NCBI GenBank assembly: GCA_965203805.1
Contig: OZ241917.1
Location: forward strand, 2,720,001 to 2,784,000
Source of the DNA: Candidatus Latescibacterota bacterium
GTDB lineage: Bacteria > Latescibacterota > UBA2968 > GCA-2709665
Reading direction: 5' to 3'
DNA: 64,000 nt
Shown: one piece after another, positions 7,515 through 32,213 of the stretch
How the letters are laid out: the number at the start of each line of letters is the position of its first letter
Numbering within the stretch: position 1 is the stretch's first letter
Translations under genes and position numbers: made by a program
The notes under the pieces: generated by a model
What the model was told of the DNA's origin: nothing
Database searches by the model: none
Seen by the model: only the letters and a program-made list of their open reading frames with translations

Positions 7515-8342
7515 TCAGGCGGGATCCTGTTCACTGGGCGTTTCGACCGGCTTCGCTTCGCGCTGCGCCATTTGATTGAACCACCACAAACCGGCCACGG
7601 CCCCGACGATACCGCTCACAAACAACCACCAGGGAAGGAACTCTACAACATGCCAATCCTCGATAGGTCGGAATAACTCCATACGCACCGATATCAACGA
7701 CAGAAAATTGTTCAGCGCGTGACCGAACAACGCGGGCAGCAAGGAACCTGTGTGTATGACCCACCACGCAAATACGATACCCAGTATCATAGATACCGGA
7801 AATTGCCAGGGATTCATATGGAGCACGGCGAACAGTAACGCGGACCACAGAATGGCACGCCTCCGGGTACCATGGGCTAACAACCCGCCCAGAATGACGC
7901 CTCTGCAGAGGACCTCCTCGGTAAGCGGCGCTTGAATCGCCAGGACATAAAACGCAAGACCAAATGGTGTTTTACTGCCCATCAAATCAAGAAACACGTC
8001 GAGTATTACTTCGGGGATTGGAATCAGATATTGTACGAAGCTTGCAAGGTTGGATGAGAAAATGCCCAATCCCACGATCGAGACGGAAACGGGTAAGTAC
8101 ATTTTCCACGGAACTGTCTTGAAAAGCAGGATGTCGGACCACGGCCGACGGGATCGACGTTGCGCATATAGCACGATCAGACCAACGGCGGGCAGATTTA
8201 CAATCAATTTCAGGTAATCGAAGATCCGTGTCGCATTGCCCGACGCGACGCCGAGGAAATGAAGCACCAACCCCAATGCGTTCATTGCTACGAAAAGCAG
8301 GACCACCAACCAAACGGATTGCTTCAAATTCGGATAGGCCAT
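7515..8342 (-). CDS. CPBP (CAAX/Abi) family intramembrane glutamic endopeptidase
   Basis: EEVLCRG, FAVLH and GHALNN motifs; multi-pass hydrophobic; starts MAYPNLKQ after a strong RBS. Confidence 0.9.
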   Translation of the reverse strand: MAYPNLKQSVWLVVLLFVAMNALGLVLHFLGVASGNATRIFDYLKLIVNLPAVGLIVLYAQRRSRRPWSDILLFKTVPWKMYLPVSVSIVGLGIFSSNLASFVQYLIPIPEVILDVFLDLMGSKTPFGLAFYVLAIQAPLTEEVLCRGVILGGLLAHGTRRRAILWSALLFAVLHMNPWQFPVSMILGIVFAWWVIHTGSLLPALFGHALNNFLSLISVRMELFRPIEDWHVVEFLPWWLFVSGIVGAVAGLWWFNQMAQREAKPVETPSEQDPA

Positions 8343-8426
8343 TGATTTCCTCCCTTTCAAGCGGTCAGATGTTCGCACATCTGACGATCCGGATTCCCGG
8401 CGAGGGTCGTCGTCGGGGTTCCGTCA

Positions 8427-9254
8427 TCAGAACTGTTCCCGACCTTCCGGCGTCGCGACCTGTGTGCCTCCGCGCATGGACATCCCATTAAACCACCACA
8501 GTCCGATCAGGGCCAGAATCATGCCGGAACCATGCATCCACCAGGGAAGCATCATACCGGCGCTGACACCATCCGTGGATCCGAGGACGCCAAGATACGA
8601 GGCCGTCACGATCAGAAAGTTGTTCAGCGCGTGTCCGACGATGGCGGGCAGCAGGGAGCCGGTTTGTACGACAATCCATGCGAATACGATCCCCAACAGA
8701 AAAGCGGCGGGAAACTGCCATGGATCTATATGGATAATTGCAAACAGCACCGCCGACCAGACGATGGCTCGAGCCGGAGTCCGGTGGGCCAGCAGGCCGC
8801 CAAGTATAACGCCTCTGAAGAGGACTTCCTTTAAAAGCGGCGCCTGAATCACCATGGTATAAAATCTAAGCGGAAAGGGCTTCTCCTTCCTGGCCCGATC
8901 CCCGACCACATCGAGCATTCCTTCGGGCGGGGATATCAGGTGCCGCAGCAGGTTACCCAGGTCCGATCCGACGATTGCCAATCCGACGACGGCCACGACA
9001 AGCGGAATGTACAATTGTAACGAAACGGCCTTGAACGGCAAGATTTCGGACAAGGTCCGATCGGTTCGACGCTTTGCGTAAAGAACCGCCAGGATGAATC
9101 CGGTCAATATCGAGAGCTGGACGACGTATGGATTCTGGTTTAACTCCTGGCCGACAATCATGCCATGGACGGCAAACGGCACGGTGATTGTCAGGCTGAA
9201 CAGGAAAAACAGCACCACGAGCCATACGGATTGCTTCAAATTGGGATAGGCCAT
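8427..9254 (-). CDS. CPBP family intramembrane protease paralog (first catalytic Glu replaced by Lys)
   Basis: KEVLFRG, FAIIH and GHALNN motifs. Confidence 0.88.
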   Translation of the reverse strand: MAYPNLKQSVWLVVLFFLFSLTITVPFAVHGMIVGQELNQNPYVVQLSILTGFILAVLYAKRRTDRTLSEILPFKAVSLQLYIPLVVAVVGLAIVGSDLGNLLRHLISPPEGMLDVVGDRARKEKPFPLRFYTMVIQAPLLKEVLFRGVILGGLLAHRTPARAIVWSAVLFAIIHIDPWQFPAAFLLGIVFAWIVVQTGSLLPAIVGHALNNFLIVTASYLGVLGSTDGVSAGMMLPWWMHGSGMILALIGLWWFNGMSMRGGTQVATPEGREQF

Positions 9255-10456: not shown

Positions 10457-11260
10457 CTATTCTGATTCCCTGACAGGATAGCAAATGTCCGCCTGTTGCA
10501 TCTCCGTTTGCAGCCAGTTGCTGAACAATGTGTGGCGAATCTCGCTGATGACGCGATCTGTCAGCCTCGCAGGATAGCTTCTCTGCAGCATATACAGTGC
10601 GAAGCCGCCAGGCGCTTTGTCGGGACCGAAGACCTCACCCGGCGCGGCAGCGAAGAGGCGCGCGGCAATGCCCTTCGGCAGATGTTCTCGCCGCAACCGC
10701 CCCCTAAACCCGCCGGCAGGCCGTGTGCGCTCGTCCTGAGAGAATTCGCGGGCTAATGCGCAGAAATCGGCGCCGTCTTCACGTATCTGAAATCGGATTT
10801 CGTCGATGACGCCTCTGTCCTTATGGAAAATCCAGCAGACCTCGGCCTCGTCGAAATCCAGCGTGTGCTGTGCGAAGTAGGGTTCAATCCGTCCCTCCGT
10901 GATTTTTCCGGACATCATGCGCTCCAATCGCCTTACCTGGGCGTCTTCGGCAACGTCACCCAGGGTTATGCCTCGGGACCGGAGCCAGGCTTCCGTGTCT
11001 TCCACGCGTTCCAGGCGATGTCGATACCGCCAGTCGTCGACGTCGCGCTGGATATCCTCAGCCTTCGCGTGGATGCCCTCCCTCTCCGCGAGCTGCCGCA
11101 CCAGCTCTCTTCGAGCGTACTCACCGAGGAATCCGAGGTTGTCTGCAACGCCCAGATGGCGCACAACCTGTTTCAGTGACACGGCGATTCCATTGACCCG
11201 AACCAGCGATAAGGCCCCGGCCTCGTTTGCGGGTTCGTGTTCATCCTGACGGCGCATCAC
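10457..11260 (-). CDS. PpiC/parvulin-type peptidyl-prolyl isomerase (foldase) associated with a type I peptide exporter
   Basis: DFCALAREFSQD-x-AGGFRG rotamase motif; overlaps the HlyD stop, as in cNMP-PCAT/HlyD/PpiC operons. Confidence 0.82.
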   Translation of the reverse strand: MMRRQDEHEPANEAGALSLVRVNGIAVSLKQVVRHLGVADNLGFLGEYARRELVRQLAEREGIHAKAEDIQRDVDDWRYRHRLERVEDTEAWLRSRGITLGDVAEDAQVRRLERMMSGKITEGRIEPYFAQHTLDFDEAEVCWIFHKDRGVIDEIRFQIREDGADFCALAREFSQDERTRPAGGFRGRLRREHLPKGIAARLFAAAPGEVFGPDKAPGGFALYMLQRSYPARLTDRVISEIRHTLFSNWLQTEMQQADICYPVRESE

Positions 11261-12657
11261 GTCTCGCCCTGGCGCGCGGACGGCGTTGTCGCGGCATCGT
11301 ACGTTGCGGACTCGTACAGCTTTCGCAAAGGACTCAGCAGCATCAGCAGGACCGACTGGCGGTCCGTCATGATCTCCGCCGTGCCCTTCATGCCGAAGAG
11401 GAGCGGCTTTTCCTGTCCTTTCACGGCCATGGTGGTCTCCTCCAATTCAACGACCCCTTTGAATATCGGCCCTACGGTCTCGTCGACGACGGCGTCCGGC
11501 GAGATCTGCTTGAGCAATCCGCGTTTAATTCCGAAGTCCTGGAACGCGAAAGCGTCGTATTTCAATTTGACGATCTGTCCCGGCTTGAGCAGGCCCACGT
11601 CCTTGTTCAAAACAGTCAGTTCGGCGACGATCGGCGCGGACGCCGGCGCCAGAGTCGCCAGAGCCTGTCCTTTGTTGATGACATGTCCGAGCGTATTCAC
11701 CTCCACGCGGGTTACAATTCCGGCCTCCGGGGCCAGAATCAGGTCCGATTCGGCATCGAGCTGGCGATCGACGCGTTTGCGCGCCTGATCCAGCCTCAGC
11801 CGCGCGGTCTTGTATGCGTGCCTGATCTGCGCGGCCTCGCGGCCGTGAGCGATGCGAGCCTCGAGAATCCGGCGCTTGAGGTCCTGCACCGCCGTTTCGT
11901 TCTTGTAGATTTCCGACATGCGTCCGGGAAGCTGCGCAAGGGCGGTCAGATATCTGACGCGCGCGCGATTGATCTCCGCCCTGCTGATCAGTTGGCGTTC
12001 GTACAGCATCTTCTGCTGCAGATAGTCTTGTTTCAAATGATCGATTTCGGCCTGACGAAAGCCGATTTGCGCCTGCAATTCCGCATCCGACGGGCCCGCT
12101 CCCCCTTCCTCGAGGGCGCCCACGTCGGCGTGGTAATCCTGCAAGGCATTCTGGTGGGCGACCATGAACCGCTCCAGAACGGACAGCCGTTTATTCAGCG
12201 AAGCGATCGTTTCCCGGTTCAATTCAGTCCTCTGGGGCAATACATGGTGATATTCGTACTCGGCCTTCTGAAACGCCATTTCCGCTTGTTCGAGTTCACG
12301 CAGGTCTCCCCAGGTTTCCCACGATTTGAGCTTGAACAGCAATTGGCCTTCTTCGATGTGGTCGCCTTCCGTAATACCGATGTATTCGATTTCACCGCCG
12401 CGACGGGCCTGCAACGTCTTCACTTTTCCGAGCGGTACGAGCCTGAACGGCGCTGACGCGACCACGTCCACCTTGCCCCACCACGCCCACACGACCGCGA
12501 TGCCGACAAACAGGAGCACGATATATAACAACGCCCGGCCCCAAAACGGTCGGAGGGACCCGATAAACGCGCGCATGTCTTCGGCCGCGTCGTCCCGGGG
12601 CCCGACAACGACAGTCGGCGCGGTACCGGGTGAGGATTTCAGCGGGTGTCCCGTCAC
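11257..12657 (-). CDS. HlyD family type I secretion membrane-fusion protein
   Basis: N-terminal TM helix, long coiled coil, ILAPEAGIV, DVGLLKPGQ-VKLKYDAF-FQDFG and GMKGTAEI motifs. Confidence 0.92.
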   Translation of the reverse strand: MTGHPLKSSPGTAPTVVVGPRDDAAEDMRAFIGSLRPFWGRALLYIVLLFVGIAVVWAWWGKVDVVASAPFRLVPLGKVKTLQARRGGEIEYIGITEGDHIEEGQLLFKLKSWETWGDLRELEQAEMAFQKAEYEYHHVLPQRTELNRETIASLNKRLSVLERFMVAHQNALQDYHADVGALEEGGAGPSDAELQAQIGFRQAEIDHLKQDYLQQKMLYERQLISRAEINRARVRYLTALAQLPGRMSEIYKNETAVQDLKRRILEARIAHGREAAQIRHAYKTARLRLDQARKRVDRQLDAESDLILAPEAGIVTRVEVNTLGHVINKGQALATLAPASAPIVAELTVLNKDVGLLKPGQIVKLKYDAFAFQDFGIKRGLLKQISPDAVVDETVGPIFKGVVELEETTMAVKGQEKPLLFGMKGTAEIMTDRQSVLLMLLSPLRKLYESATYDAATTPSARQGET

Positions 12658-12684: not shown

Positions 12685-15600
12685 TCAAGCCATCTGCAAC
12701 TGCTGGCTGGACATGTGGTAGTAAAGGCCGCGGCGATCCATGAGTTCTTCATGGGTTCCCGTGTCGACGATGTGGCCCTTTTCAAGCACGACAATCACGT
12801 CGGCATCCCGCACGGTACTCAAACGGTGAGCAATGATCATTGCGGTGCGGTTTTCGAGGAAAAGGTCCAGGTTTGCCTGGATCGCGCCTTCGGAGTCCGT
12901 ATCCAGTGCGTTTGTGGCTTCGTCGAAGATCAGGATTCCCGGATCACGGTACAGCGCTCTCGCGATCGCAATCCGTTGCCGCTGTCCGCCGGACAATCCG
13001 ATCCCCTGCTCGCCGACTTTTGTCTCATATCCCAGGGGCATCTCGGTCACAAAGTCCTGTACACAGGCCATTCTCGCCACCTCAAGGACCCGGTCCATAT
13101 CGGCGTCGGCTTCTCCAACCGCGATGTTCTCCGCAATCGTGCCGCTGAAAAGAAACGGATCCTGCATCACCATGCCCACCTGGCGCCGAAGCCAGTGCGG
13201 GTCCAGGTCGCGCACGTCCATCCCATCCAGCACCACCCTCCCTTCCGTGGGATCGAACAGGCGCGGCACCAGCTTCACCAGCGTGGTCTTGCCCGCCCCG
13301 CTCCGCCCGACAATGGCGACTTTGCGCCCCGGTTCGAGAATCAGGCTGATGTTGTTCAACACGTAAGGTTCGTCGGAGCCCACGCCGTATCTGAAAAACA
13401 CATCGTCGAATATAACGCGGCCTTCCACCCGTTTCAGTCTCATGCCGTGCCCGCGCTGGCGCGCATCCTCCATCTCTGCGTCGTACACGTCATTCAGCCT
13501 GTCCAGGGCGACGCGGGCTTCCTGCACCTCCGGCCAGACGCCGATCAACCCCATTACAGGTCCCATAACGTTGCCGATGAGCGCGTTGAACGCCATCAAC
13601 TGCCCCACGGACAGCTCCCCTTCCATAACCAGGGATGCGCCGTACCACAGGATCACGGTTGAACTCAGCAGATTGATCATACTGCCCCCCGCCCCGAACA
13701 GCATTTCCATTTTCAAACGCTTGAAACCGATCTGGATTTCTTTCGTGAACTTCCCTTCCCATTGCCACCTGGTGACGCGTTCGACGGCCTCGGCCTTCAC
13801 CACGTCGACGCCGTGCAATGAGTCGATCAGGACGGACGACTGCTCCGCGCGGGCAAGAAAGGCGCGCTGGCTGAACGACTTCAATATCGGGGTATAAATC
13901 AGCGTGAGACCCACGGAAAGCGGCACGAAGATCAACATCACGAGCGTCAGCTCCCAATTGTAATAGAACATCAGTCCCAGATAGACGAACAACATGATGA
14001 AGTCCAGTATTGCGGACACGGTCGTGTCGGTAAACAGGCGCTGGATCGTGGCGTTCTCCTTGAACCGCGTGGTCAAATCGCCGGTGCGCCTCAGCGCGAA
14101 GAATCGCATGGAAAGACCCAGCAGGTGCCGGTAGAACCTGCACAACATCGTAAGGCTGAGGCGCGCGCTGATATATCCGATGAGATATGCGCGCAAGGTC
14201 GACGTCCCCATCTGGAACAGCGCCACAACGACCATACCCGCCAGCATCAGGTTCAGCAGATCCCTGTCGTGATGCACAAGTACCTGGTCCACGATCGTCT
14301 GTGTGAATACCGGGGAGGCCAGTCCGAACAGACTGAGCACCAGAGACGCCAGCAACACCTCGATCAGGATGGGTGTATAAGGCTTGATCAACGGGAAGAA
14401 CCGCTTGAAGGAAGACCTGGAGGGTTCATTCTCGGACACCTGATCCGTGTATTCCAGCAGGAGGGCCATATTGGTCCAGCTCTTCTCGAATTCCGCACGG
14501 GACAACGTCCGGAGGCCCAGGGCGGGATCCGCGATCCTCACGTCTTTTCTGGTGATTTCGTACAGCACCACGAAATGGTTGCCTTCCCAGTGCAGGATCG
14601 CCGGCAGTCCGGTCCGCATCAGCGCTTCGTATCCCGTACGCACGCCGCGCGTGACGAACCCGAGCGTCTCCGCCGCTTCGGCCAGCGCCGCCATCGACGT
14701 GCCGTCGCGGGAAACGTTGCACATATCGCGCAGCCGGTTCAGCCCGATCGGCATCTTGTAATACTTGCAGATCATCCCCAGACACGCCGCCCCGCAATCG
14801 GACTGATCATGCTGTTTCAGGAATGGATAGCGGAACGAAGACGGCGCGCCGTTTCTTCCATCATCCGATTCACCGCTCCCGGTTCCGTCTGCCGGTCCGT
14901 TCGCGTCTGCGACGTTCTTCTTTTCCGGCGATCGGGCTTCGACCCTGGCGCGCACTTCGGAAGGACGGGTCCCGAGGGACGGTGACACGTTCGAATTCTC
15001 TCCTGCATGCAACTGACGCACCAGGGACGTGGCGGACCCGAACGCGGCAGCCGCGTCGCCAAGGTCACGAAAGTCGCTATCGGCGAGGTAAAACAGAACA
15101 CTATCCCGGGTACTGCGGACAACCGGGGGCCCGCCTTCGGAACGATCGGTTTCCTCGAAGAAATCACCCGCGACCAGACGACGGGCGACGCCATCCCCGG
15201 ACATCATCTCCAGCTCGCCGCTTCCCACCACGCAGAACCGCCCTCGCGACTGACCGGGACCGGAAACCGTCGCTCCCGTCGCAATCTCCTCACGCTTCAT
15301 ACGACGGAACAACCTCCGCATCGCATCCCCGGAAACGGACCCTTTCAGAAACCTCGTGAAATCCCGATATGGGATATTCGCCACCTGATCCTGGAGATGT
15401 GCTTTCAGTTCGGGTTCTTTTTTCGTCACGTTGACGAAGTCACCCCGCGACACACGCAAAACCTCGGAATCCTCCACCGCGCGCACCGATGCCCGATGTC
15501 CGCGGCCGGTCAGCAGCGCCCCCTCGCCGAAATGGTCGCCGGGATACAGGAAACCCAGGGTTTCAGGATGGCCGTCCGCATTTCGCCCGATCACTCGCAA

Positions 15601-15726
15601 CCGACCCGATCGCACGATGTAGAACGCATCGCCGGGTCTCCCCTGATCGAAGACGACCGACCCGAAGGGAAATCCGACCGGCTCTGACCGAATCGACATT
15701 TGAGAAATGAGGGATAGGACGTCCAT
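12685..15726 (-). CDS. Peptidase C39-containing ABC transporter (PCAT) with N-terminal cNMP-binding domains
   Basis: cNMP domain (GDHFGEGALL...RASVRA) and a second degenerate one; C39 domain QHDQSDCGAAC/HWEGNHFVV/IADP; TMD; NBD with GRSGAGKT, LSGGQRQR and DEATNALD. Confidence 0.95.
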   Translation of the reverse strand: MDVLSLISQMSIRSEPVGFPFGSVVFDQGRPGDAFYIVRSGRLRVIGRNADGHPETLGFLYPGDHFGEGALLTGRGHRASVRAVEDSEVLRVSRGDFVNVTKKEPELKAHLQDQVANIPYRDFTRFLKGSVSGDAMRRLFRRMKREEIATGATVSGPGQSRGRFCVVGSGELEMMSGDGVARRLVAGDFFEETDRSEGGPPVVRSTRDSVLFYLADSDFRDLGDAAAAFGSATSLVRQLHAGENSNVSPSLGTRPSEVRARVEARSPEKKNVADANGPADGTGSGESDDGRNGAPSSFRYPFLKQHDQSDCGAACLGMICKYYKMPIGLNRLRDMCNVSRDGTSMAALAEAAETLGFVTRGVRTGYEALMRTGLPAILHWEGNHFVVLYEITRKDVRIADPALGLRTLSRAEFEKSWTNMALLLEYTDQVSENEPSRSSFKRFFPLIKPYTPILIEVLLASLVLSLFGLASPVFTQTIVDQVLVHHDRDLLNLMLAGMVVVALFQMGTSTLRAYLIGYISARLSLTMLCRFYRHLLGLSMRFFALRRTGDLTTRFKENATIQRLFTDTTVSAILDFIMLFVYLGLMFYYNWELTLVMLIFVPLSVGLTLIYTPILKSFSQRAFLARAEQSSVLIDSLHGVDVVKAEAVERVTRWQWEGKFTKEIQIGFKRLKMEMLFGAGGSMINLLSSTVILWYGASLVMEGELSVGQLMAFNALIGNVMGPVMGLIGVWPEVQEARVALDRLNDVYDAEMEDARQRGHGMRLKRVEGRVIFDDVFFRYGVGSDEPYVLNNISLILEPGRKVAIVGRSGAGKTTLVKLVPRLFDPTEGRVVLDGMDVRDLDPHWLRRQVGMVMQDPFLFSGTIAENIAVGEADADMDRVLEVARMACVQDFVTEMPLGYETKVGEQGIGLSGGQRQRIAIARALYRDPGILIFDEATNALDTDSEGAIQANLDLFLENRTAMIIAHRLSTVRDADVIVVLEKGHIVDTGTHEELMDRRGLYYHMSSQQLQMA

Positions 15727-15891: not shown

Positions 15892-16767
15892 CTACTTCGG
15901 AGGCAGTGAGCGCCCCACGAGTCCCGGCGTTGCATCCGTCCCGGGATCTTCAGGCGGGACCTCGCCCTCAGAAACGGGCTCAGCGGGCTTCGCAACCCGG
16001 GAAAACCACCACAGTCCCACAGCAGCGAGCGCCACCCCGGCCGCACTGAACCACCAGGGGTTGAACGCTACGTCGTTGAGGTCACCCGAAATGTCTATAT
16101 CCGATATATCAGAATGCAGAATCGTCACGGCGATTAGGTTGTTCAATGCGTGTCCGAACAGGGCGGGCAACAAGGATCCTGTACGGATAACCCACCACGC
16201 CCAGACCATGCCTGATATGAAGATAGGCACAAATGTCCACGGGTCCAGATGCAACATTCCAAACAAGACTGCTGACAATAGAACCGCGCAGACCCTTGAA
16301 TGATGTGCCAGCAGACCACTCAGGATAATGCCTCTGAATAGCAACTCTTCGCCCAGAGGCGCGATGACGGCTGCCCCGAAGACAGCCGACAGAAAAGACG
16401 TCTTGCGCAGGATCTCCGAACGATAGATTTCCTGCATCCACTCGGGAACGGGAGCAATCCGAATCGCGACTTTCATCAATTCGGTATCGAGCATCCCCAG
16501 GCCGACGACTGATATTGCAACGCAGGGCCATATCCGCCAATCAAACCGCGTGTTGAATAGAGGACGTATATATCGCCAGTCCAGATCCGTGCGCCGGTAA
16601 ACATAACCCAGAAGAATGACGAAATTCACCAGCAACAGAATTCCCATCAGGAAATCGTCTTCAAACTTCCACCGGTCGACAACGAGCACCGCCACCGCCA
16701 GGCCAACCTGAATCAACAGGAACAGAAACAGTAACCAGATCGTCTGTTTCAGGTTCGGATACGCCAT
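15892..16767 (-). CDS. CPBP family intramembrane protease
   Basis: EELLFRG, FGMLH and GHALNN motifs; N-terminus MAYPNLKQ. Confidence 0.9.
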   Translation of the reverse strand: MAYPNLKQTIWLLFLFLLIQVGLAVAVLVVDRWKFEDDFLMGILLLVNFVILLGYVYRRTDLDWRYIRPLFNTRFDWRIWPCVAISVVGLGMLDTELMKVAIRIAPVPEWMQEIYRSEILRKTSFLSAVFGAAVIAPLGEELLFRGIILSGLLAHHSRVCAVLLSAVLFGMLHLDPWTFVPIFISGMVWAWWVIRTGSLLPALFGHALNNLIAVTILHSDISDIDISGDLNDVAFNPWWFSAAGVALAAVGLWWFSRVAKPAEPVSEGEVPPEDPGTDATPGLVGRSLPPK

Positions 16768-16779
16768 ATGGATAACTTA

Positions 16780-17649
16780 TTATGTTGAGGATGAAGAACC
16801 CGGATCGTACCGCATTGGTTCGTGGGGTTCATCAACGCGTATTGTCGGCGCCTCTCTGGAGGACAAAACGTAGAATCCGGCTTCCGACGAATGATCCTGA
16901 ATCCAACTGTCATTGTCATATCTGCGAGCCTTTGAATAAACCATGACATCTCCCGCGCCTCCGGCAAACGTGGCACAAAGTAGCAAGACCGACCAGACCG
17001 CCGGATCAAACGACAGAATTAAAACCGCGGCGGGTGTTGTTACGATCAACGGGAGTAGCGCGAATGCCCGGTATGCGCTCAGTGTCATCGGTTTGTCAGC
17101 GTGGCAGTAAAAGGCCGTTAATCGCAAGTTGATTCCAAAGTGCAGCGAACTAAATGGAATTTTCCCCCACGCCATCGCGGCAATACCGTGAAGTGCTTCG
17201 TGAATCACAAACAAGGCGATTAGTCCTCCAATCAATTTCCATAGATCGACGAGAGGAAATCGCAGCTCTATCGCCCATGGAAGCAAGGCATCTGCCCCGA
17301 TGACAGACATTCCCGAAATCCAGAACATCAAAAAACACAAACTGTAAATCTCGTGTTTTTCAAGAATCACTTCAGTGACGTTAGAATCCTGGCCGGGTTC
17401 AATTCCGCCTGGATTCGACACACATAACCCGCCGACTGCGGTCACCATTCCCGCTGCGGTTTCATAGAGCTTTTTTCGAAAGATTATAAACGAGAATGCC
17501 TGAACAACCAGGACCGCCATCAGGATCACAAGATCGAATTGAATGACGTACCTGAGAATCAGCAAAGCAGGCGCAACGGAAAATAGCGCATACGATATGG
17601 CCGCGAGAATCCAACGACTCCACGTTCCCCCTGGGAGGACATCCTTCAT
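16780..17649 (-). CDS. DUF3267 family putative zincin membrane metallopeptidase
   Basis: HEALH in a TM context, FYCH, LLPLI, GGAGD and IQDH motifs. Confidence 0.8.
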   Translation of the reverse strand: MKDVLPGGTWSRWILAAISYALFSVAPALLILRYVIQFDLVILMAVLVVQAFSFIIFRKKLYETAAGMVTAVGGLCVSNPGGIEPGQDSNVTEVILEKHEIYSLCFLMFWISGMSVIGADALLPWAIELRFPLVDLWKLIGGLIALFVIHEALHGIAAMAWGKIPFSSLHFGINLRLTAFYCHADKPMTLSAYRAFALLPLIVTTPAAVLILSFDPAVWSVLLLCATFAGGAGDVMVYSKARRYDNDSWIQDHSSEAGFYVLSSREAPTIRVDEPHEPMRYDPGSSSST

Positions 17650-17748: not shown

Positions 17749-18603
17749 CTAGTCGCCGTCTGCTGGCGAATCTGCCGTCTCAGTCACGAGGGGGTTGGCT
17801 GATTGCGTCTTCTTCGATATCTGGCGAAACCACCAGAGTCCTAGTGTAGCCAATAACACGCCAGCGCCTGTCCACCACCAGGGATTGAAAAACACAACAT
17901 TGAAGTCTTCTGCTACCTCGAGATATGGTATTTCGAAGTGCAACGTCGTGACGCCGATGAGATTGTTCAATGCGTGGCCGAAAAGCGCAGGCCACAAGGA
18001 TCCAGTCCGGAAATACCACCAGGCGAATACGAGCCCGTACAATAGGGCCGGTGGAAATTGCCAGGGATTGAGATGACCCACGCCAAACAGAAACGCCGAC
18101 CAGAAAATCGCCCTGTTCCTGGTATAGTGTGCCAGCAAACCGGCAAATATCGCGCCTCTGTATAGCAACTCTTCAACGATCGGGGCGACAAACACGGCCC
18201 GGAACACGGCTGAGGAGTAAGATGTTTTGCGCCCGAACTCCGATTTAAAAATGTCCTGGATTAAATCGGGCATAGGAATCAACCGAATTACCGCTTTGTC
18301 CATTTCAAGTAGAACCATCCCGATACCAAAGATCGAAATTGCCACACAAGGCCACACACGCCAATCAAAGTTTGTGTTCAGCAATTGTGATGTGTCTCTC
18401 CAGGTTCGATCCGCGCGGCGGAATACGTAGCGCAAGTAGAGAAAGTAAACCACCAGAGTCGATATGCCTGTCAACAGGTTTTCGTGTCGAGAACTTTCGC
18501 CAAGGACGGTCTGTACAACGTAGATGATGAGTTCCAAAACCGACTCTGTTATCCAGAATAGAACCACTAACCAGATGGACTGCCGAATGTTCGGATACGT
18601 CAT
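17749..18603 (-). CDS. CPBP family intramembrane protease
   Basis: EELLYRG, FGVGH and GHALNN motifs; N-terminus MTYPNIRQ. Confidence 0.9.
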   Translation of the reverse strand: MTYPNIRQSIWLVVLFWITESVLELIIYVVQTVLGESSRHENLLTGISTLVVYFLYLRYVFRRADRTWRDTSQLLNTNFDWRVWPCVAISIFGIGMVLLEMDKAVIRLIPMPDLIQDIFKSEFGRKTSYSSAVFRAVFVAPIVEELLYRGAIFAGLLAHYTRNRAIFWSAFLFGVGHLNPWQFPPALLYGLVFAWWYFRTGSLWPALFGHALNNLIGVTTLHFEIPYLEVAEDFNVVFFNPWWWTGAGVLLATLGLWWFRQISKKTQSANPLVTETADSPADGD

Positions 18604-18910: not shown

Positions 18911-19516
18911 TCACTCGACTGGGGTCTCGCCCTCCGGCCAAATGGTACAACCAGGTTCGGATGGATGATCTCTGACCCAGAGATTCTTGTCGTAGTCCTG
19001 GACTTTGAAATACATCAATACGTCCCCTGAACACCCTGAGAACGCCACACTGAAGAGTAATAGTGTCCAGATAGCTGGATCCAAAAGGATCACAAGACCG
19101 GTAACGAATGTAGTAACTAAAAGAGGCAGGAGCAGCAAGACACGAAAATTACCCATCCTCATCCGGCTCGAAAAATGGCAATAAGGGGCCAGCCATTTCC
19201 ATTTGAATCCGAAACGAACCGAACTGTATGGGACCTTGCCCCACTTCAGTGCGGCAAAGGCGTGTAGCGCCTCATGAAAGACGACGATGAGAATTGTACA
19301 AGCCAGAAACATCCAGCGGTCGCGATTGAGGAAGCGGAAATCGATTTTCCATAAATTGACTATATCGCCTACTAAAGCAAGAGTAAACGCGAAACAGAAC
19401 ATTACTAACGAAAAAACAACCATATAGACTTTGTCAACGCGAAACTCAAGAATCTCGTGTCCGATCTTATCTCGATCGAGTAATCGCCCCGAATCGGCTC
19501 CTTCATTCATCGGCAT
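18911..19516 (-). CDS. DUF3267 family putative zincin membrane metallopeptidase
   Basis: HEALH, APYCH, GCSGD and VRDHPSEPG motifs; paralog of 16780-17649. Probable ATG at 19516. Confidence 0.8.
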   Translation of the reverse strand: MPMNEGADSGRLLDRDKIGHEILEFRVDKVYMVVFSLVMFCFAFTLALVGDIVNLWKIDFRFLNRDRWMFLACTILIVVFHEALHAFAALKWGKVPYSSVRFGFKWKWLAPYCHFSSRMRMGNFRVLLLLPLLVTTFVTGLVILLDPAIWTLLLFSVAFSGCSGDVLMYFKVQDYDKNLWVRDHPSEPGCTIWPEGETPVE

Positions 19517-19731
19517 ACCATCCTCACGCTTCCGCGTTCGAATCAAGATTGCAGTGCCTACCAGGTCTCGTGATTGTGACCCCTGGATGGAGAAAATCGG
19601 AAGTCGCAAAGCAGAGTAGCACTTGGGTCTTATCGAATAGCAACGGCATCAGGACCGGTGCAGGCTCCCCCATGCAAACCTGCACCGGTCGCGTCAGACA
19701 CTGCCTACGGAATCTTTCCGATCTGTCGCTC

Positions 19732-20025
19732 TCAGAAATTCGATAGTCCGTCGGCCATGTCGGATATGAAGCCACCGGCAACGAAATCTACGGCGTCGTT
19801 AGCCCTATCCCAATACCACTGAGCCGCTTCCGCAGTACCTGTGGGATTTGTAATTGCACTGACTGTGATTCCAACCAGTACGCCTAGTACAAATGGAGCT
19901 AAACCTCCGGAAATTTCTGCCACTGATTCCCTAGCCAAATCCTCCTGCAGAATTGGTAAGGTAGAAAATGCTGACAACACTTGGCCAGCATCTGTCGCCA
20001 CTGGATTCGACAATACATGGGTCAT
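19732..20025 (-). CDS. Double-glycine-leader precursor peptide 1 (41-aa leader, 56-aa core)
   Basis: RBS AGGAGG; leader ends LPILQEDLARESVAEISGG; hydrophobic core with GxxxG. Confidence 0.8.
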   Translation of the reverse strand: MTHVLSNPVATDAGQVLSAFSTLPILQEDLARESVAEISGGLAPFVLGVLVGITVSAITNPTGTAEAAQWYWDRANDAVDFVAGGFISDMADGLSNF

Positions 20026-20454
20026 TTTATCCTCCTGAAGAGTAAAACGTTATTGCTGATTTGCAAACAAGTGGCTTGAATCTCGCGTTACGAAAACGGT
20101 GACTATTCCTGACGGTTACCGGGTTCGAGAATCGTGCTGTTCCTCTCGTCGGGATGTCAGGTCCGGTGCTCCTTCGATAGCCATGGCGGTCGATCGGGGT
20201 CTGATTATCGAAGGTCCATCGGACGCCAATGTAACACGCACCGTCACTTTATCACGCAGTTTATTCGTTCACTGGCGTGAGGCGCCGGCAAGTCCCGTCT
20301 CCCTACACTAAAGGGAACTTCGTTCATTCACTGTTGGGTTGGATCGCGGAAGATTCCGCGTTGACTTCCCGGAGTCTGCTGAGAAGCCCACTGCATCAGT
20401 AGTCGAGATTGGCAGGATGGATCACTTTCCGCCTGACAAACCCCGCACCGAGTT

Positions 20455-20655
20455 TCAGTCGCCGAAATAATCGGCGATGGCTTCTGCAATTTTCATGCCA
20501 ATCCATCTTGACATGAAACGCGGCCCCAAAGGTGGCACACCAATTCCACCCGATGCATTCGCCATCTCACGCCGCACAAGATTGGTTTCCCGGCCTGGAA
20601 GTTGGGCGCAGGTCGCGACGGCTAGCGCGGGCTGCAACTGAATTCGATCTGTCAT
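20455..20655 (-). CDS. Double-glycine-leader precursor peptide 2 (37-aa leader, 29-aa core)
   Basis: RBS GGAG; leader ends LPGRETNLVRREMANASGG; core IGVPPLGPRFMSRWIGMKIAEAIADYFGD. Confidence 0.72.
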   Translation of the reverse strand: MTDRIQLQPALAVATCAQLPGRETNLVRREMANASGGIGVPPLGPRFMSRWIGMKIAEAIADYFGD

Positions 20656-20736
20656 TTCTCCACGTCCTTTCTGTATTGTTTCTGGCACGAACACGTGAGT
20701 TTTCAATCCAGACTTAACCTGACTGCTTCAACTCCA

Positions 20737-20940
20737 CTACAGTGTACGGCTCGACCTGTCCGGCTCCGGCAAGGTTACGCCGAATATTTCAGCGACCCAA
20801 TTTCTGAGAAGGCGGCCCAGCCCGGCGTCGCCGCCGGAAATTCGTGCGGTCTGCCCTGCGGTCAGGTCTTCCGTCTGAACCGGCAGACGGGCCGGAACTT
20901 CGTGAGACGCCGCAGGGCTCGATGCGATTCTTCTGTTCAT
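20737..20940 (-). CDS. Double-glycine-leader precursor peptide 3 (37-aa leader, 30-aa core)
   Basis: RBS AAAGGAGGTG; leader ends LPVQTEDLTAGQTARISGG; core DAGLGRLLRNWVAEIFGVTLPEPDRSSRTL. Confidence 0.75.
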   Translation of the reverse strand: MNRRIASSPAASHEVPARLPVQTEDLTAGQTARISGGDAGLGRLLRNWVAEIFGVTLPEPDRSSRTL

Positions 20941-21352
20941 GTCTTTCACCTCCTTTCGTCGGCATCCTCGCGACGTCCGGACAATCGTGTTGCCCCTCCG
21001 ATAACCGGATTCGCGTCGCGCAGATGCATTGATGTCCGAAGCGTCTGTAACCCTTCTTCCTCCCGCGGCATACGCCCCGCGGGAGGCGGCTTCGGCTTTG
21101 AACCAAAGGGTGCGTTTTGCCACGGAACGCGAGCGCGGTCCGCAACGCTGTCGATGCATTGGAACCGCAAGGACTGTGCCACTCGCGACACCCCCCGGCA
21201 TAACTGACTGGCCTGCAAATGCGAATCGATTTGAAGACTTCCGGGAGGCCGATGTCTCTCGGCGAATCGTTGAAATATGTGTTCCATTCTGCGTCACTCG
21301 GGTGAAACCATGTTGCCTTTGGCGCCTCAGAGACCCTGTCTGGAACCGGCAC

Positions 21353-21384
21353 AAAAAAACACCGGCGACATAGGTCACCGGTGT
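21353..21384 (-). terminator. Rho-independent terminator in the region upstream of the precursor genes
   Basis: Minus strand ACACCGGTGAC-CTAT-GTCGCCGGTGT followed by a T run. Confidence 0.65.
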
Positions 21385-21655
21385 ATTCATTGAAAACATA
21401 GAGGGGTTACGTCATCTCGCGTTCCGCCGAGGTTGATCAGAGAGGCAAGAAGTCAACGAGAAGCGAAGGGGACCCGTGATCGGCCCATTCAAAACGACTG
21501 AATTCCAGTTGCCGAACTTCCGGGATATCGTTAAACTTGGGACAACGTTGTCAATCTTTCAGCGGAACGTACGTCAGAAATGTTCCTTCAGTCTCCAGAT
21601 TTATCGTTCACATACCGGGCTGCGGCCCTACACGATCTGCAACCGATCGATAACC

Positions 21656-22435: not shown

Positions 22436-22903
22436 GTGGAGGTCCATACAGTGAGAAATGTCGATATTGCGGTGACCGGCGCCGATGGAACACTCCAGCT
22501 CGTCCTGGAAATCAAGAACGTGCCGGGTGCAACTGCCGAGTGGGTCATCCTGATGCGTCGCAACTTGCTTGCCCATTCGTTTCTGCCTCCGGCGCCATTC
22601 TTCCTGCTTGTGCTCCCGGACTTTTTGTACCTCTGGACAGGGTCCTCTACGTTAGATGGTTTGGCAAAACCTGACTATAAAATCGAAACCTCCGAAATGC
22701 TCGCGCCATATCTTAAATATAACCAATCCCTTATTGAACTAAGTCGATATGGGCTGGAAATGCTTACGGTGTCGTGGCTGGAAGATATACTTCATGCTGA
22801 CCTGAGACGAGACTCGGTTGACGGCAATCTCAGATGGATTTTTGACTCGGGGTTATATAGAGCAATTACAAACGGTTCCCTGGAACTCGAAGCGATGACA
22901 TGA
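22436..22903 (+). CDS. Hypothetical protein with a PD-(D/E)xK-like N-terminus
   Basis: VDIAV...LVLEIK motif; overlaps the following PIN gene (ATGA). Confidence 0.65.
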   Translation: MEVHTVRNVDIAVTGADGTLQLVLEIKNVPGATAEWVILMRRNLLAHSFLPPAPFFLLVLPDFLYLWTGSSTLDGLAKPDYKIETSEMLAPYLKYNQSLIELSRYGLEMLTVSWLEDILHADLRRDSVDGNLRWIFDSGLYRAITNGSLELEAMT

Positions 22904-23505
22904 TTGTATACCTTGAGTCAAATTTCGTACTTGAACTGGCATTTCTTCAAGCCGAGCATGAACATTGCTCGGCACTTTTGCGTCTATCGGAATCGGGAGA
23001 GATTCGCCTGGTTTTACCGGCATTCAGCATCGGTGAACCGTACGAAACGTGGGTGCGCCGCTCGAAGCGAAGACGAGACGTCCACGAGGAGTTGACTACC
23101 GCAATTCGAGAACTTTCCCGGTCAAGTCCTTACGAACGGGTAACCGACCATTTCCACGAACTCACTGGAATACTGATCCGAAGTGGTGAGGAGGAGAAGC
23201 GCCGTTTGGATGAAACCCTGGAAGACATCCTGAGAACCGTTGAAGTAATACCGATTGGATTGAGCATTATCAGAGCGGCCATAAATTACCAAAGGAAGCT
23301 AACCCTTTCGCCGCAAGATTCGATAGTTTACGCTTCGGTTCTCGATCACCTGAATCCAGAATCATCCGAGCCAGGCTGTTTCATAACCACGAACTCAAGA
23401 GATTTCGCCAATCCGGACATCGAAACCGAACTTACTGACCACAACTGCCGGCTGCTGACAAAATTCGCCGACGGCGTGGGGTATATCCGAAGTCAGTTGT
23501 CGTGA
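22900..23505 (+). CDS. PIN-domain protein
   Basis: VYLESNFVLE, QDSIVYAS and FITTNSRDF acidic PIN motifs. Confidence 0.82.
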   Translation: MIVYLESNFVLELAFLQAEHEHCSALLRLSESGEIRLVLPAFSIGEPYETWVRRSKRRRDVHEELTTAIRELSRSSPYERVTDHFHELTGILIRSGEEEKRRLDETLEDILRTVEVIPIGLSIIRAAINYQRKLTLSPQDSIVYASVLDHLNPESSEPGCFITTNSRDFANPDIETELTDHNCRLLTKFADGVGYIRSQLS

Positions 23506-28425: not shown

Positions 28426-30255
28426 TTATCCGCTTGCTTGCGAGTTTAAATCTCCGTGCCACAGCCGCTGCATCTCTTCGCAGTTTTCGAGGAGAGCGTC
28501 CAATGTACCCTCCGCGCAGATGCGCCCGTCCTTGAGGACGATGATATTGTCGGCGCGCCGCAAGGCGGCTCGACGATGCGATACCAAGAGATACGTGCCG
28601 ACGTAGGGGGCGGTCGCGGTCAACCCCCGCTGGTCAAATACCCGCTCCCACAATACCCGCTCCGTCTCGACGTCGAGGGCGCTGGAGAGGTCGTCGAACA
28701 CGACCAGTTCCGGTTCACGCACAAACGTCCGCGCGGCTGCCGTCCGAAGAACCTGCCCGCCTGAGAGTTTTGCGCCACTCGGCCCAATCAACGTATCCAA
28801 TCCGTTTCCAAGCGCCTCCAAATCGTCTTCCATCACAGCCTTGCCAATTGCCGCAGGGAGATCAACACGATCTTCACGCAACCCCAGAAGAATGTTGTCT
28901 CGAAGCGTGTCGCTGAACAGGCGCGGAACCTGGGGCGTATATGCACATCGCGGAGGGACGAGGAACGACGCCGGGTGCGGCACGTGCTCGCCATTCCAGT
29001 AGATGTCTCCCGCATCCCCGGGCAGGTAACCCAACAGGGACTCCAGAAGCGTGGTCTTGCCGGATCCAATTTGTCCGGTGATCACCGTTACGGTCCCGGC
29101 TTCCAGAAACAGATCTATCCCTTCGATTCCCCGTCGGGTCTCCGGATGACGATAGCTCAAGCCTTCCACGCACAGGTGCCGTAAAGAGTGAAACCTCATT
29201 TTTCTGATATACGGAACGGGTGGAAGATCACCCCGCAGGTAAGCCGGGCCGGGTCGGACAAGGGTATCTTGAGCAATGCCCGGCAACAGTTCACGGAGTC
29301 GCTCGAAGGAAACGCAGGCCTGTTTGTGCGCGGCCAACAACGCTCCCAGGCGGTCTGCAAATGCCAAAACGGTAAATTCACCCATGGCGATGTAACTGAC
29401 AAACAGCGCGAAATCACCGACGGTAAAGTCCCCTTCTCTCATCCGTTCGGCGGCAAATATCAGAATTACGCCGGTCGCCAGGTTGATTGTCGTGGAATTC
29501 ATCGATGCCAGCAGCCGGTTGAAGAGCCGTTCCCTGATTGCCGCTCTACGCCTTGCTTCGTTCAGCCCGTCGAAACGCAGGACGGCGTGCGTCTCGCTGT
29601 CTGCAGCCTTTACTGCCAGTACCGCCGCGAAGAGATCTCCGAGGAATCCAGTGACGCGGCCCGTGCTTTCCCGGCTTTCATGCCTGTATGACCTGATTCG
29701 CCTTCCCAATCCGTTTGCAAGGAGTAAAATAGCTGTCATCGGTATGAATGCCATAAGCGTGATATACCGATTGACACTCAAGAGCACGGCCAAGGCAAAC
29801 ACGGCGGCGAGCGCATTCCCGGTGAGAGAGAGTAAATTGGTTATGGGGGCCACCGCGCCATCGATATCGTCATCCAATCGGTTGACGATATCGCCCGACC
29901 CATGTTCGGCACGGCTTTGCGCGTCCTGCAGGAGACTCTCGAACAGATTCGCGCGGATACGTGTCTTCAGTTTCCCCTCGAAATACGCGTAGGTCGCGGC
30001 ATATCCCTGCTCGGCGACCTGCACGGCGAATCGGGTGGCAAGAAAGAGGATCACAAGGGTCGAGATACCGAAGCGGACATCCGTGTCCCGTGTCAGGGCG
30101 TTGAAGAACTCACGCAGGATCAGGCCGACGATCAGGGGAAACCCGAAATAGCCCAGAGACAGGATGACACCAAGCAAGAAAAGCCAGGGACTGAATCGTA
30201 TCAGCGCCAGGTAATACGGGCCCCTGCCTGCTGCCTCTTGGACTGTTGATATCAC
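28426..30255 (-). CDS. ABC exporter, fused TMD-NBD (heterodimer subunit)
   Basis: [13 protein letters not shown] and DDLSSALD (degenerate Walker B). Confidence 0.92.
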
Positions 30256-31997
30256 GACTGTTTCCCCTCCAGTCCCGTTCGCAACAGTCCGTAAAGGACG
30301 GAATTGGGATTCTCCGCCAGATCCGCGTACGCCCCGGTTTCCTGGATTCGTCCTTCGTCCAGAATCATGACTTCGTCCGCCCGATGCACGGTCGAAAGAC
30401 GGTGCGCGATGATAATCGCGGTCCGATTCCGGAGGAGTTCGTCCATTGCCCGGACAAGGCGGCTCTCGGTTACCGCGTCCAGGCGCGCAGTAGCTTCGTC
30501 CAGAATCAGCAAACCAGGCTCCCTCAGGAAAACCCGCGTAAATGCCAACAACTGCGCCTCACCCGCGGAGAGGCCACCGCCACCCGGCGGCATTCGCGTA
30601 TCGAGACCCTCAGGAAGCGACTCGTACCATACATTCAGTCCCAATGCCCGAAGCCCAGCCAGAACGCAATCATCCTGAATCGATCGATCGAACAAAGTCA
30701 GGTTGTCGCGAACCGATGACTGGAACAGCTGTACGTCCTGCGTGACCAATCCAACGCGCCGGCGAAGTTCGGACAGCCGCGGTTTGAGGATGTCTGTGCC
30801 GCCGATGAAAATCGATCCGCGACTGGCGTCGTACAGGCGAAACAGAAGTCGGGACAGCGTTGTCTTCCCGCACCCGGTACGTCCCAGCAGGCCAAGTACT
30901 TTGCCCGAATCCAGCTGAAACGTGAGATGATCCAGTACCGTTTTTCCGTGCTCGTAGGAAAAGCAGACGTTCCGGCACTCGACGGAAAGCGCGCCCGACG
31001 GGAGAATGGCTCCGGGGCCGTCCTGAATCCCTGTTCCGGTCGCCCTGAGTTCTTCGATGCGCTCAGCGCCAACCCTGATCCGCTGGAAGACTTCAACCTG
31101 CCTTTGAATCCGGTTCAGGGGCGTGTGCAGCATCTGAAGGTAATGGAGCACGAGATAGACGGTGCCGATGGTAATGGCGTTCGCCCCAAACAGAATTGCT
31201 CCATACGCCATCGCCACGGCGAAACCGGCCGCGAACACGATGTTCGATATGGACCATCCCGCATCCGTGATCACGTCGGCCTTGAACGCCGTTGTGAACG
31301 CCCGCCTCACAGCCTCGTGGAAGCGGCGCATCGTATAGGGGATTGCGCCGGCTGCCCGTATGTCCCGCAGACCCGCAAGACGTTCCTCCAGAAAACCGGA
31401 CAGCTCTGCGCCGGCTTGCCTTTCGGCATGCCAGAACGACACCGACATTTGTTGGGCGCGAATGTGAACCGTCAGATATACGGCTGCAAATGCGCCGAGC
31501 ATTGCGCCCAGTCGCCAGTCTTCCACCGTGAGCACGATCAACACGCCAAGCGTCACCAGGAGGCCGCCAATCAGTTCAATCACGAAATCCGAAAAAAAAG
31601 CGCCGAGTCGACTCACGTCGCCGTCAACGCGCTCAATCAGTTCGCCTGGTGTGCGCTTGTTGTGAAAAGACATATCCAGGCTCAGGATGTGACCCGTCAG
31701 ATCGGACCGCAGGCGGTTGGTCGCACGCCAGCTCACGTCGCTGCAAACGTAGCCTGCCAGGGCGGACACGGTCTGGTGAATCATCCCCACGCTAATGAAC
31801 AACAAGCCCGCGCGGATGAGCTGCTCCAGTGATCCTCCCTCCCGTGCTGTATCGATGAAGAAACGCATGATCAGAGGGTTGATGAGCTGCAGACCGATCC
31901 CGCCTGACAACAGTAGCGCCATCACCAGAACCCTCGGCCACTGCGGCTTGAGATAGCGAACGAGCAACTTCAAATACTGGCTCACCGGTTCTTTCAT
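30252..31997 (-). CDS. ABC exporter, fused TMD-NBD (heterodimer subunit)
   Basis: [15 protein letters not shown] and DEATARLD motifs. Probable start is MKEPVSQ at 31997. Confidence 0.92.
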
Positions 31998-32123
31998 AGC
32001 GAATCTCTGTCGATTCTTGTAAAATCCGACAGTTACGGGATCGTGCGTCCATCTGACATCTCCGTCGCACTTACACCCTGAAGGATGCACTTCGGCAAGC
32101 CCCTTCAAGACCCACAACAACAC

Positions 32124-32149
32124 AGGGCGACCACAAGGGTCGCCCCTGC
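32124..32149. repeat. REP-like palindrome, copy 2
   Basis: Same AGGGCGACCACAAGGGTCGCCC sequence as at 26161. Confidence 0.7.
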
Positions 32150-32213
32150 ATCCGAACAGGCAACAGCGCGACGGTTTCATCTTGCAAGGCAGTTCACCCG
32201 CCCCGCTGCAACG

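Follow-up and report, generated by a model that had tools for sequence, protein, structure and literature searches.

Class II microcins of the colicin V/CvaAB type are made as precursors with double-glycine leaders of ∼15–20 residues, in which positions -4, -7 and -12 are hydrophobic, and are exported by an ATP-binding cassette (ABC) transporter with a built-in peptidase (PCAT) of the active-C39 type together with a membrane fusion protein; the cores are unmodified and often anionic or hydrophobic, and a locus commonly encodes several precursors. The present analysis concerns a comparable locus of a Candidatus Latescibacterota bacterium (assembly GCA_965203805.1, contig OZ241917.1, positions 2,720,001–2,784,000 of the forward strand; this whole stretch of 64,000 nucleotides is referred to below as the window), in which three small precursor genes, P3, P2 and P1, head an operon that also encodes membrane proteases, a PCAT, an HlyD-family membrane fusion protein and a PpiC/SurA-like protein. 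By function it belongs with the double-glycine/PCAT peptide loci and comes nearest to the class II microcin type, with which it shares the leader register, the kind of transporter, the multiple precursors, the character of the cores and, probably, their lack of modification. It differs from that type in its longer leaders (37–41 residues), in the two cyclic-nucleotide (cNMP)-binding domains of the PCAT, in a fixed PpiC/SurA-like gene and a sigma-54 type promoter, and in its candidate immunity proteins, which are DUF3267 and CPBP proteases and not small membrane proteins.

Other described systems resemble the locus in single components. HetC of Nostoc PCC 7120 has the same order of cNMP-binding domain, C39 peptidase, ABC membrane domain and ATPase over ∼1000 residues (PMC10986499); HetC has no known cargo, and according to that source no recognizable double-glycine cargo gene lies near it, whereas here the cargo genes are adjacent and the cNMP-binding stretches number two. 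The likeness to HetC is one of domain architecture, and the best NCBIfam matches of the PCAT are generic. The TMcins (TmcA/TmcP/TmcBC/TmcD/TmcE), as described in PMC12328743 and PMC13712780, resemble P1 and its neighborhood in that a hydrophobic segment of transmembrane length, putatively helical in P1, opens the mature part and a DUF3267 protease gene adjoins; TmcP, an intramembrane protease of the S2P clan, likewise has HExxH and a distal Asp. Unlike the TMcins, the precursors described here have a double-glycine leader and a PCAT and lack a conserved pair of Cys, and neither a DsbA-like nor a TmcE-like gene was recognized in the locus. The three-motif CPBP genes beside double-glycine peptide genes recall the CPBP/CAAX (Abi) proteases, which PMC8692603, citing Kjos et al. 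(2010), names as candidates for bacteriocin immunity, although four copies are present here, paired with DUF3267 genes in a lineage of Gram-negative type, and their immunity role is putative. Finally, MirC, a member of TIGR04500 from the rosaritide graspetide cluster, is presented in PMC13097080 as a chaperone-like partner of the graspetide ligase, and its gene, like the PpiC/SurA-like gene here, lies beside those for a PCAT and a double-glycine precursor; the present protein scores far below the TIGR04500 cut-off, lacks the N-terminal domain of the model and has no ATP-grasp ligase in its locus or genome. Among the papers listed by literature searches, the supplements of the TMcin papers not included (these may list DUF3267 clusters outside Gram-positives), no description of this locus was found. 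Its particular features are an order-confined leader family, mostly anionic cores and a cNMP-PCAT with visible cargo, to which the sequence would add a ligase-less PpiC-like partner, matched DUF3267/CPBP cassettes and apparent sigma-54 control.

Precursor genes and their leader family

The three small open reading frames (ORFs), first noticed in an earlier note made from the nucleotide sequence, all lie on the minus strand where that note had placed them (Table 1), as borne out by the sequence and the ORF list. Two of them are indeed hidden within over-long ORFs: P2 begins at an internal ATG of an ORF of 83 residues and P3 at an internal ATG of one of 220 residues. The short forms are taken as the real genes because orthologues of the short precursors in other genomes (62–68 residues) begin at the same Met codons, and because the open frame that extends upstream around the P3 orthologue has anything between 73 and 187 residues, depending on the genome. 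Each gene has a ribosome-binding site (RBS) of its own, strong and of the AGGAGG type in P1 and P3, weaker (GGAG, near the ATG) in P2; that of P3 is invariant in all 15 loci of the genus, the window included.

When a large protein collection was searched with an alignment of the three sequences, 49 related small proteins were found among 192 candidates, and these fell into three orthologous groups, one for each peptide of the window, with lengths of 62–68 or 97 residues. The orthologue alignments comprised 30 sequences for P3, 17 for P2 and nine P1 relatives. In the P2 group the leader and an acidic-aromatic C-terminus are conserved and the middle of the core is variable. A P3 profile gave full-length matches in all 14 other genomes of the genus and matches in 11 of 21 genomes of a second genus (another family of the same order, referred to below as the sister genus), about half of them through the leader alone; none of the 25 genomes sampled from 15 other genera was matched. 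Pfam returned no match for any of the three precursors. The three ORFs are thus real, conserved genes.

The leaders align without gaps in the register that had been claimed for them, with LP at -19/-18, L at -12 and SGG at -3 to -1, and with I, A and I at -4 and V, M and T at -7. Since all three end in SGG, they carry the Gly-Gly at -2/-1 that marks PCAT cargo. Hydrophobic residues are found at -4, -7 and -12, the Thr at -7 of P3 being a weak fit; in the LahT150 co-crystal, according to PMC6363468, the leader residues at these positions dock into the C39 groove. Among 39 gaplessly aligned leaders, L-19 and G-2 are invariant, L-12 is nearly so and 90% or more have G-1.

A profile built from 69 leaders of other genomes, with those of the window excluded, was used in place of a profile hidden Markov model of the three leaders, which would have been circular. 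A scan of the genome with a leader profile had been proposed earlier; in the 5.87-Mb genome (106,774 six-frame pieces) the independent profile matched these three precursors alone, with E values of 1e-16, 6e-15 and 1e-8, the next best match having an E of 0.15. In a wider search, a leader profile matched 41 of 168 genomes of the phylum, all from one order (17 of 21 and 23 of 31 in its two families), and none of the 115 genomes from 12 other families of the phylum. Among 1.84 billion proteins just 77 cluster representatives were matched, nearly all of them small and matched at the N-terminus. The precursors had no match to the NHLP/Nif11 leader families at E ≤ 0.1.

The window and 27 loci fetched from relatives, 28 in total, were mapped with the window proteins and the leader profile, and contained 91 leader-bearing small ORFs (one spurious match, L039_1573, being excluded). 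Four leader subtypes were distinguished, three of which are represented once each in the window. At its end the fourth has IDG (once SEG or ING) instead of Gly-Gly, in the same register (loci L015, L017, L018, L020, L022–L025 and L037–L039), and the cores that it precedes are either Gly-rich and hydrophobic or long and acidic.

The earlier reading of the three ORFs as PCAT-processed double-glycine precursors had been staked on the presence of leader homologues near PCAT genes in relatives and of purifying selection on the leaders, and it is supported on both counts. A full-length PCAT gene accompanies the leader homologues in 25 of the 28 loci, fragments in two, and in one locus no PCAT gene lies in the fetched stretch. 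An HlyD gene is present in 26 and a PpiC-like gene in 25, downstream of two to four precursors per locus. Ratios of nonsynonymous to synonymous substitution (dN/dS), calculated pairwise within the genus by the Nei-Gojobori method and to be read as rough values, are all far under 1. They amount to 0.13–0.16 at leader positions -19 to -1 and to 0.26–0.31 for whole leaders. In P3 the leader has 0.30 (0.53 in its N-terminal half, 0.13 at -19 to -1) and the core 0.10; in P2 the values are 0.26 for the leader and 0.15 for the conserved C-terminal motif. The P1 core, with three sequences only, gave 0.15–0.29.

The spacer between P2 and P1 (20026–20454, minus strand) is unusually long, at 430 nucleotides, and has weak tblastn matches to beta- and alpha-type leaders elsewhere (E 0.08–0.45), one of them containing an internal stop. 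A fourth precursor may have left its remnant here; in sister species this place is occupied by a second beta-type gene.

Cores, export genes and membrane-protease cassettes

The cores, of 56, 29 and 30 residues in P1, P2 and P3, have no Cys and contain two, one and one Trp, respectively, in agreement with the earlier description. They are also mutually unrelated as described there: BLASTP gave no alignment for two of the pairs and an E of 0.19 for the third. None is cationic, the net charges being -5 for P1 and 0 for P2 and P3, and this pattern extends to the family. Of 50 cores from the genus, 31 are net negative, nine neutral and ten positive. Among the 36 cores of the sister genus, 35 carry a net negative charge (median -7, lowest value -13), and five further, visibly acidic precursors that the cut-site pattern missed are outside these counts. 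The earlier note had considered such charges atypical of class II bacteriocins. The charges themselves stand, but they are less odd than was implied, since class II microcins of Gram-negatives are often anionic.

Family cores are of several types: short and amphipathic-looking; a hydrophobic helix followed by an acidic tail (the P1 type); Gly-rich and hydrophobic; and ending in a run of Cys. In the P1 core, a hydrophobic segment of helix length follows the predicted cut site directly (mean Kyte-Doolittle hydropathy 2.34 over the first 17 residues) and precedes the acidic tail. AlphaFold2 predicted a helix at this segment with a predicted local distance difference test (pLDDT) score of ∼55, in a model too poor for use (mean pLDDT 47.8). 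P1 matched TIGR03949 (class IIb bacteriocin, lactobin A/cerein 7B) with 14.9 bits (E 0.017), under the cut-off of 21.5, and P2 and P3 had no match to that model. In a protein-atlas look-up the best score for P1 was 0.86, under the 0.9 level; one cluster at 0.83 contained 12% Bacteriocin_IIc members, which is a lead only. In some precursors with gamma-type leaders the hydrophobic segment is followed by a tail with runs of three to seven Cys (L013, L014, L019, L029, L036 and others); such peptides may be metal-binding or lipid-anchored.

From its head, the operon contains the three precursors, then DUF3267_A, CPBP_A, DUF3267_B, CPBP_B, the PCAT (whose gene lies ∼4 kb downstream of the precursors), HlyD and the PpiC/SurA-like protein. 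The PCAT was assigned by Pfam, with E values of 2e-27 for cNMP binding (two stretches, N-terminal to C39) and 6e-40 for C39. Its C39 part aligns with those of LahT150 (6mpz, E 7e-23) and PCAT1 (4ry2) and retains the Cys, His and Asp positions; the whole protein aligns with PCAT1 at an E of 4e-129. It scored under the curated cut-offs of TIGR01846, TIGR03796 (589 versus 853 bits) and TIGR01193. The match of the PpiC/SurA-like protein to TIGR04500 spans profile positions 83–335 of 340, the N-terminal domain of the model being missing. Because all scores fall under the cut-offs, the locus is placed, on sequence criteria, outside every curated bacteriocin, NHLP/Nif11 and TIGR04500 family, and it has no sequence similarity to any curated bacteriocin family. 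The locus ORFs scanned had no match to ATP-grasp, LanM, radical-SAM or YcaO proteins, and the genome had none to the graspetide ligase family TIGR04187. Since no modifying enzyme is found in the locus, the peptides are probably unmodified.

In the mapped loci the two to four precursors are followed by zero to four DUF3267/CPBP genes and then by the PCAT, HlyD and PpiC-like genes, a synteny that holds over two genera. Precursor number and protease set differ between species, and the export genes stay 72–93% identical. The variable block (16–23 kb) has ∼50% G+C versus ∼60% in the export genes.

DUF3267_A is assigned the start at 19516 on the basis of its RBS and an orthologue alignment (the ORF list has a TTG at 19609), and its HExxH and distal Asp-Pro are invariant in seven orthologues. 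DUF3267_B, 36% identical to it, retains both motifs. Genes of the DUF3267_A type directly follow all eight P1-type precursors, and DUF3267_A-like ORFs occur in one of the 20 loci that lack a P1-type core, where the ORF is split. CPBP proteins are defined by the motifs EExxxR, FxxxH and HxxxN; all three are complete in CPBP_A, CPBP_B and CPBP_D, and in CPBP_C a Lys replaces the first Glu of EExxxR. Downstream of their export genes, 14 of the 15 genus loci carry CPBP genes, up to three of them; the exception is L026. Five sister-genus loci are without any DUF3267 or CPBP gene, and these proteases are therefore not general maturation factors for the leader family. A complex prediction for DUF3267_A with P1, from alignments of 7–10 rows and without controls, scored 0.01 against a mark of 0.32 and gives no evidence either way; the AlphaFold2 model of DUF3267_A (mean pLDDT 43.7) was too poor to use.

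Several loci appear decayed or orphaned (L026 of G014, L017 of G026 and L023 of G023). In one species there are only two PCAT fragments and neither an HlyD nor a PpiC gene, the export genes of L026 having been lost; in another the PCAT is broken into three pieces, with a gap of 1.1 kb. In one genome a second cluster comprises four precursors and a CPBP gene, and no transporter lies within 16 kb of it.

Promoter, leader RNA and feature coordinates

A perfect sigma-54 type element is found 226–230 nucleotides before the first precursor in all 15 loci of the genus (16 elements observed versus 1.6 expected) and does not vary across the aligned upstream regions. This promoter had gone unnoticed in the earlier note, as had the protease cassettes and the cNMP domains of the PCAT. 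Thirteen genes for sigma-54 activators were found in the genome, none of them in the window; the near-invariant block upstream of the promoter is a possible binding site for such an activator (a bacterial enhancer-binding protein, bEBP). Scanning of 19500–21600 gave no sigma-70 sites and a single chance-level Rfam match (E 0.82). A second sigma-54-like element, with one mismatch, lies at 20485–20500 (minus strand), inside the 3' end of P2 and ∼460 nucleotides upstream of P1.

The long hairpin predicted in the 5' untranslated region (UTR) is enclosed by a helix that pairs 21038–21044 with the Shine-Dalgarno sequence of P3 at 20948–20953. Of the cells at these pairs 95.7% are paired, versus 41–60% with slid partners, and in four pairs 16 cells have changed on both sides, although the structure was derived from the alignment on which it was counted, which favors it.

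Table 1. Features of the peptide locus and its upstream region, with positions in the window.
Feature	Position	Strand	Remarks
CPBP_C and CPBP_D	7515..9254	-	CPBP_C 8427-9254, CPBP_D 7515-8378; Pfam; 1.2-kb gap after export genes
PpiC/SurA-like protein	10457..11260	-	TIGR04500 89.5 bits versus cut-off 180; Pfam Rotamase E 3e-10
HlyD-family membrane fusion protein	11257..12657	-	TIGR01843 205.7 bits (cut-off 208.65); Pfam HlyD_3
PCAT	12685..15726	-	1013 residues: two cNMP-binding stretches, C39 peptidase, ABC membrane domain, ATPase (Pfam)
CPBP_B	15892..16767	-	Pfam E 2e-21; motifs present
DUF3267_B	16780..17649	-	Pfam E 4e-15; N-terminal extension of ∼80 residues
CPBP_A (Rce1-like/Abi-type intramembrane protease)	17749..18603	-	PF02517 E 3e-21; EExxxR, FxxxH, HxxxN
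DUF3267_A (PF11667, membrane metalloprotease-like)	18911..19516	-	Pfam E 1e-16; directly 3' of P1
P1 precursor	19732..20025	-	97 residues; gamma-type 41-residue leader, 56-residue core of net charge -5
P2 precursor	20455..20655	-	66 residues; beta-type 37-residue leader, 29-residue net-neutral core
P3 precursor	20737..20940	-	67 residues; alpha-type 37-residue leader, 30-residue net-neutral core; first gene of the operon
Conserved 5' UTR structure	20948..21044	-	RNAalifold; 16-bp hairpin, 21014-21029 with 20960-20975
Sigma-54 type -24/-12 promoter, TGGCAC-N5-TTGC	21166..21181	-	Perfect match, 226 nucleotides upstream of P3 start
Near-invariant block of ∼50 nucleotides	21269..21318	-	∼100 nucleotides upstream of promoter; contains GGAAC...TTCA element
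Terminator-like GC hairpin and T-run	21352..21384	-	Upstream of promoter; kept in 14 of 15 rows; G-U as well as compensatory changes

Outside the operon, a 155-residue ORF without a family match runs into the beginning of a PIN_12-domain gene (Pfam E 3e-11); the two lie at 22436–23505 (plus strand), in the low-GC stretch next to the locus, and may form a toxin-antitoxin-like pair. The same pair adjoins the locus in L029. Two adjacent genes for ABC half-transporters (ABC_membrane and ABC_tran domains, 609 and 642 residues, no peptidase domain) lie at 28426–32180 (minus strand), with no relation to the peptide locus seen.

Possible functions of the peptides

Judged from these features, the three peptides are very probably genuine PCAT cargo that is cut after Gly-Gly and exported. 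The best explanation of the locus as a whole, held with somewhat better than even confidence, is that it makes unmodified, PCAT-exported, microcin-like antagonistic peptides and carries protease cassettes for immunity or processing. The variable block of precursors and DUF3267 and CPBP genes behaves like toxin-plus-immunity cassettes, and the peptides are therefore read as microcin-like weapons with the proteases as self-protection. For the more specific proposition, antagonistic peptides with protease-type immunity, the chances appear evenly balanced.

In the proposed course of events, transcription would start at the conserved sigma-54 promoter, and the leader RNA, whose folding is supported by covariation, could mask the RBS of P3 by pairing with it. 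The C-terminal 19 leader residues would form a helix, and residues -4, -7 and -12, correctly spaced for it, would dock in the C39 domain as in LahT150. The C39 peptidase, with its intact triad, is predicted to cut after Gly-Gly, and the PCAT and HlyD proteins, with an outer-membrane partner, would export the three cores; a ligand of the two cNMP-type domains might gate this export. The PpiC/SurA-like protein probably chaperones the precursors, by analogy with MirC.

Several points weigh against this explanation. Among DUF3267 proteins only TmcP has been characterized, and it acts as a maturation protease rather than in immunity (PMC13712780). No small protein of the immunity type was recognized, nor did the locus yield a gene for an outer-membrane channel. 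None of the PCAT, HlyD and PpiC-like proteins reaches the named NCBIfam cut-offs, and the mostly anionic cores differ from the cationic peptides usual in membrane attack. The dN/dS values are rough because dS, 0.55–1.2 for the P2 and P3 types, reaches 2.6 among the three P1 sequences. Moreover, the relatedness of the compared genomes means that the co-occurrence counts overstate independence and do not stand for separate events.

The maturation of staphylococcal pheromones involves the CPBP protease MroQ, and the peptides could similarly be signals (pheromones or autoinducers) that are released by a second-messenger-gated, HetC-like PCAT and trimmed or sensed by the CPBP and DUF3267 proteins. 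The PCAT has the cNMP-C39-ABC architecture of HetC, which binds ppGpp and is discussed in PMC10986499 as a possible exporter of signaling or regulatory peptides; the apparently tight sigma-54 control, the RBS-pairing leader RNA and the small, net-neutral cores of P3 and P2, strongly conserved in the genus (dN/dS 0.10–0.15), would also suit a signal. This explanation is nevertheless unlikely, as the locus has no gene for a sensor kinase or receptor, its P1-type and Gly-rich cores are long and hydrophobic, and two to four different precursors per locus, with swapping cores and matched membrane-protein cassettes, are typical of antagonism loci. About equally doubtful is a reading that concerns P1 only and is compatible with antagonism for P2 and P3: P1 would be a Gram-negative counterpart of the TMcins, with DUF3267_A acting as a biosynthetic enzyme, not in immunity, to mature or release a membrane-inserted P1 that the PCAT then extracts. 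TmcP cleaves the leader off a membrane-inserted precursor (PMC13712780), the 17-residue segment that opens the P1 core is strongly hydrophobic, and a DUF3267_A gene with invariant HExxH and Asp-Pro directly follows each P1-type gene (8 of 8). However, P1 keeps the full double-glycine register of P2 and P3, which makes C39 the obvious leader protease; the transporter is a PCAT and not an ABC transporter of the TmcBC type; and the TMcins, according to PMC12328743, have two conserved Cys and a DsbA-like gene and are reported from Bacillota and Actinomycetota only, whereas P1 has no Cys.

The abundance of acidic cores in the sister genus, down to -13 and several ending in Cys runs, also allows polyanionic or Cys-rich peptides that are secreted to act on a host, on metals or on minerals, in bacteria dwelling in sponges. 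The label "sponge metagenome" is attached to six of the ten sequencing runs that contain at least half of the words of this stretch, from two of four studies (none of the listed runs is an RNA run). That habitat label comes from run records only, nothing in the locus indicates a host target, and P2 and P3 of the window are net neutral and Cys-free; a role of this kind is accordingly quite improbable. The notion that the precursors are chance open frames with a coincidental motif, for which the position of two of them inside longer ORFs and the lack of a Pfam match could be adduced, is already refuted by the independent leader profile (E 1e-8 to 1e-16), by orthologues under purifying selection and by conserved synteny, and its probability is negligible.

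Exported, microcin-like antagonistic peptides thus remain the preferred reading. A bolder and rather improbable extension would see here a lineage-specific system in which sigma-54, an RBS-masking RNA and a nucleotide-sensing PCAT gate a changing set of polyanionic peptides, and in which S2P-type DUF3267 proteins handle the P1-type peptides in the membrane. If true, the locus would combine the double-glycine/PCAT route with a Gram-negative counterpart, free of Cys, of TMcin biosynthesis, and would provide the first cNMP-PCAT of the HetC type with cargo and leader rules readable from the genome.

Irrespective of that extension, the leaders make up a new family of the double-glycine kind which, among the genomes searched, occurs in one bacterial order only and to which many unrelated and mostly anionic cores are attached. 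The analysis ties a HetC-type cNMP-PCAT to visible cargo genes, such that what these transporters export, and what gates them, become directly testable. Outside the Gram-positive phyla, it places DUF3267 and CPBP proteins in matched cassettes with particular precursors, which offer a clean system for deciding whether the role of such proteases is the maturation of the peptide or the protection of its producer.

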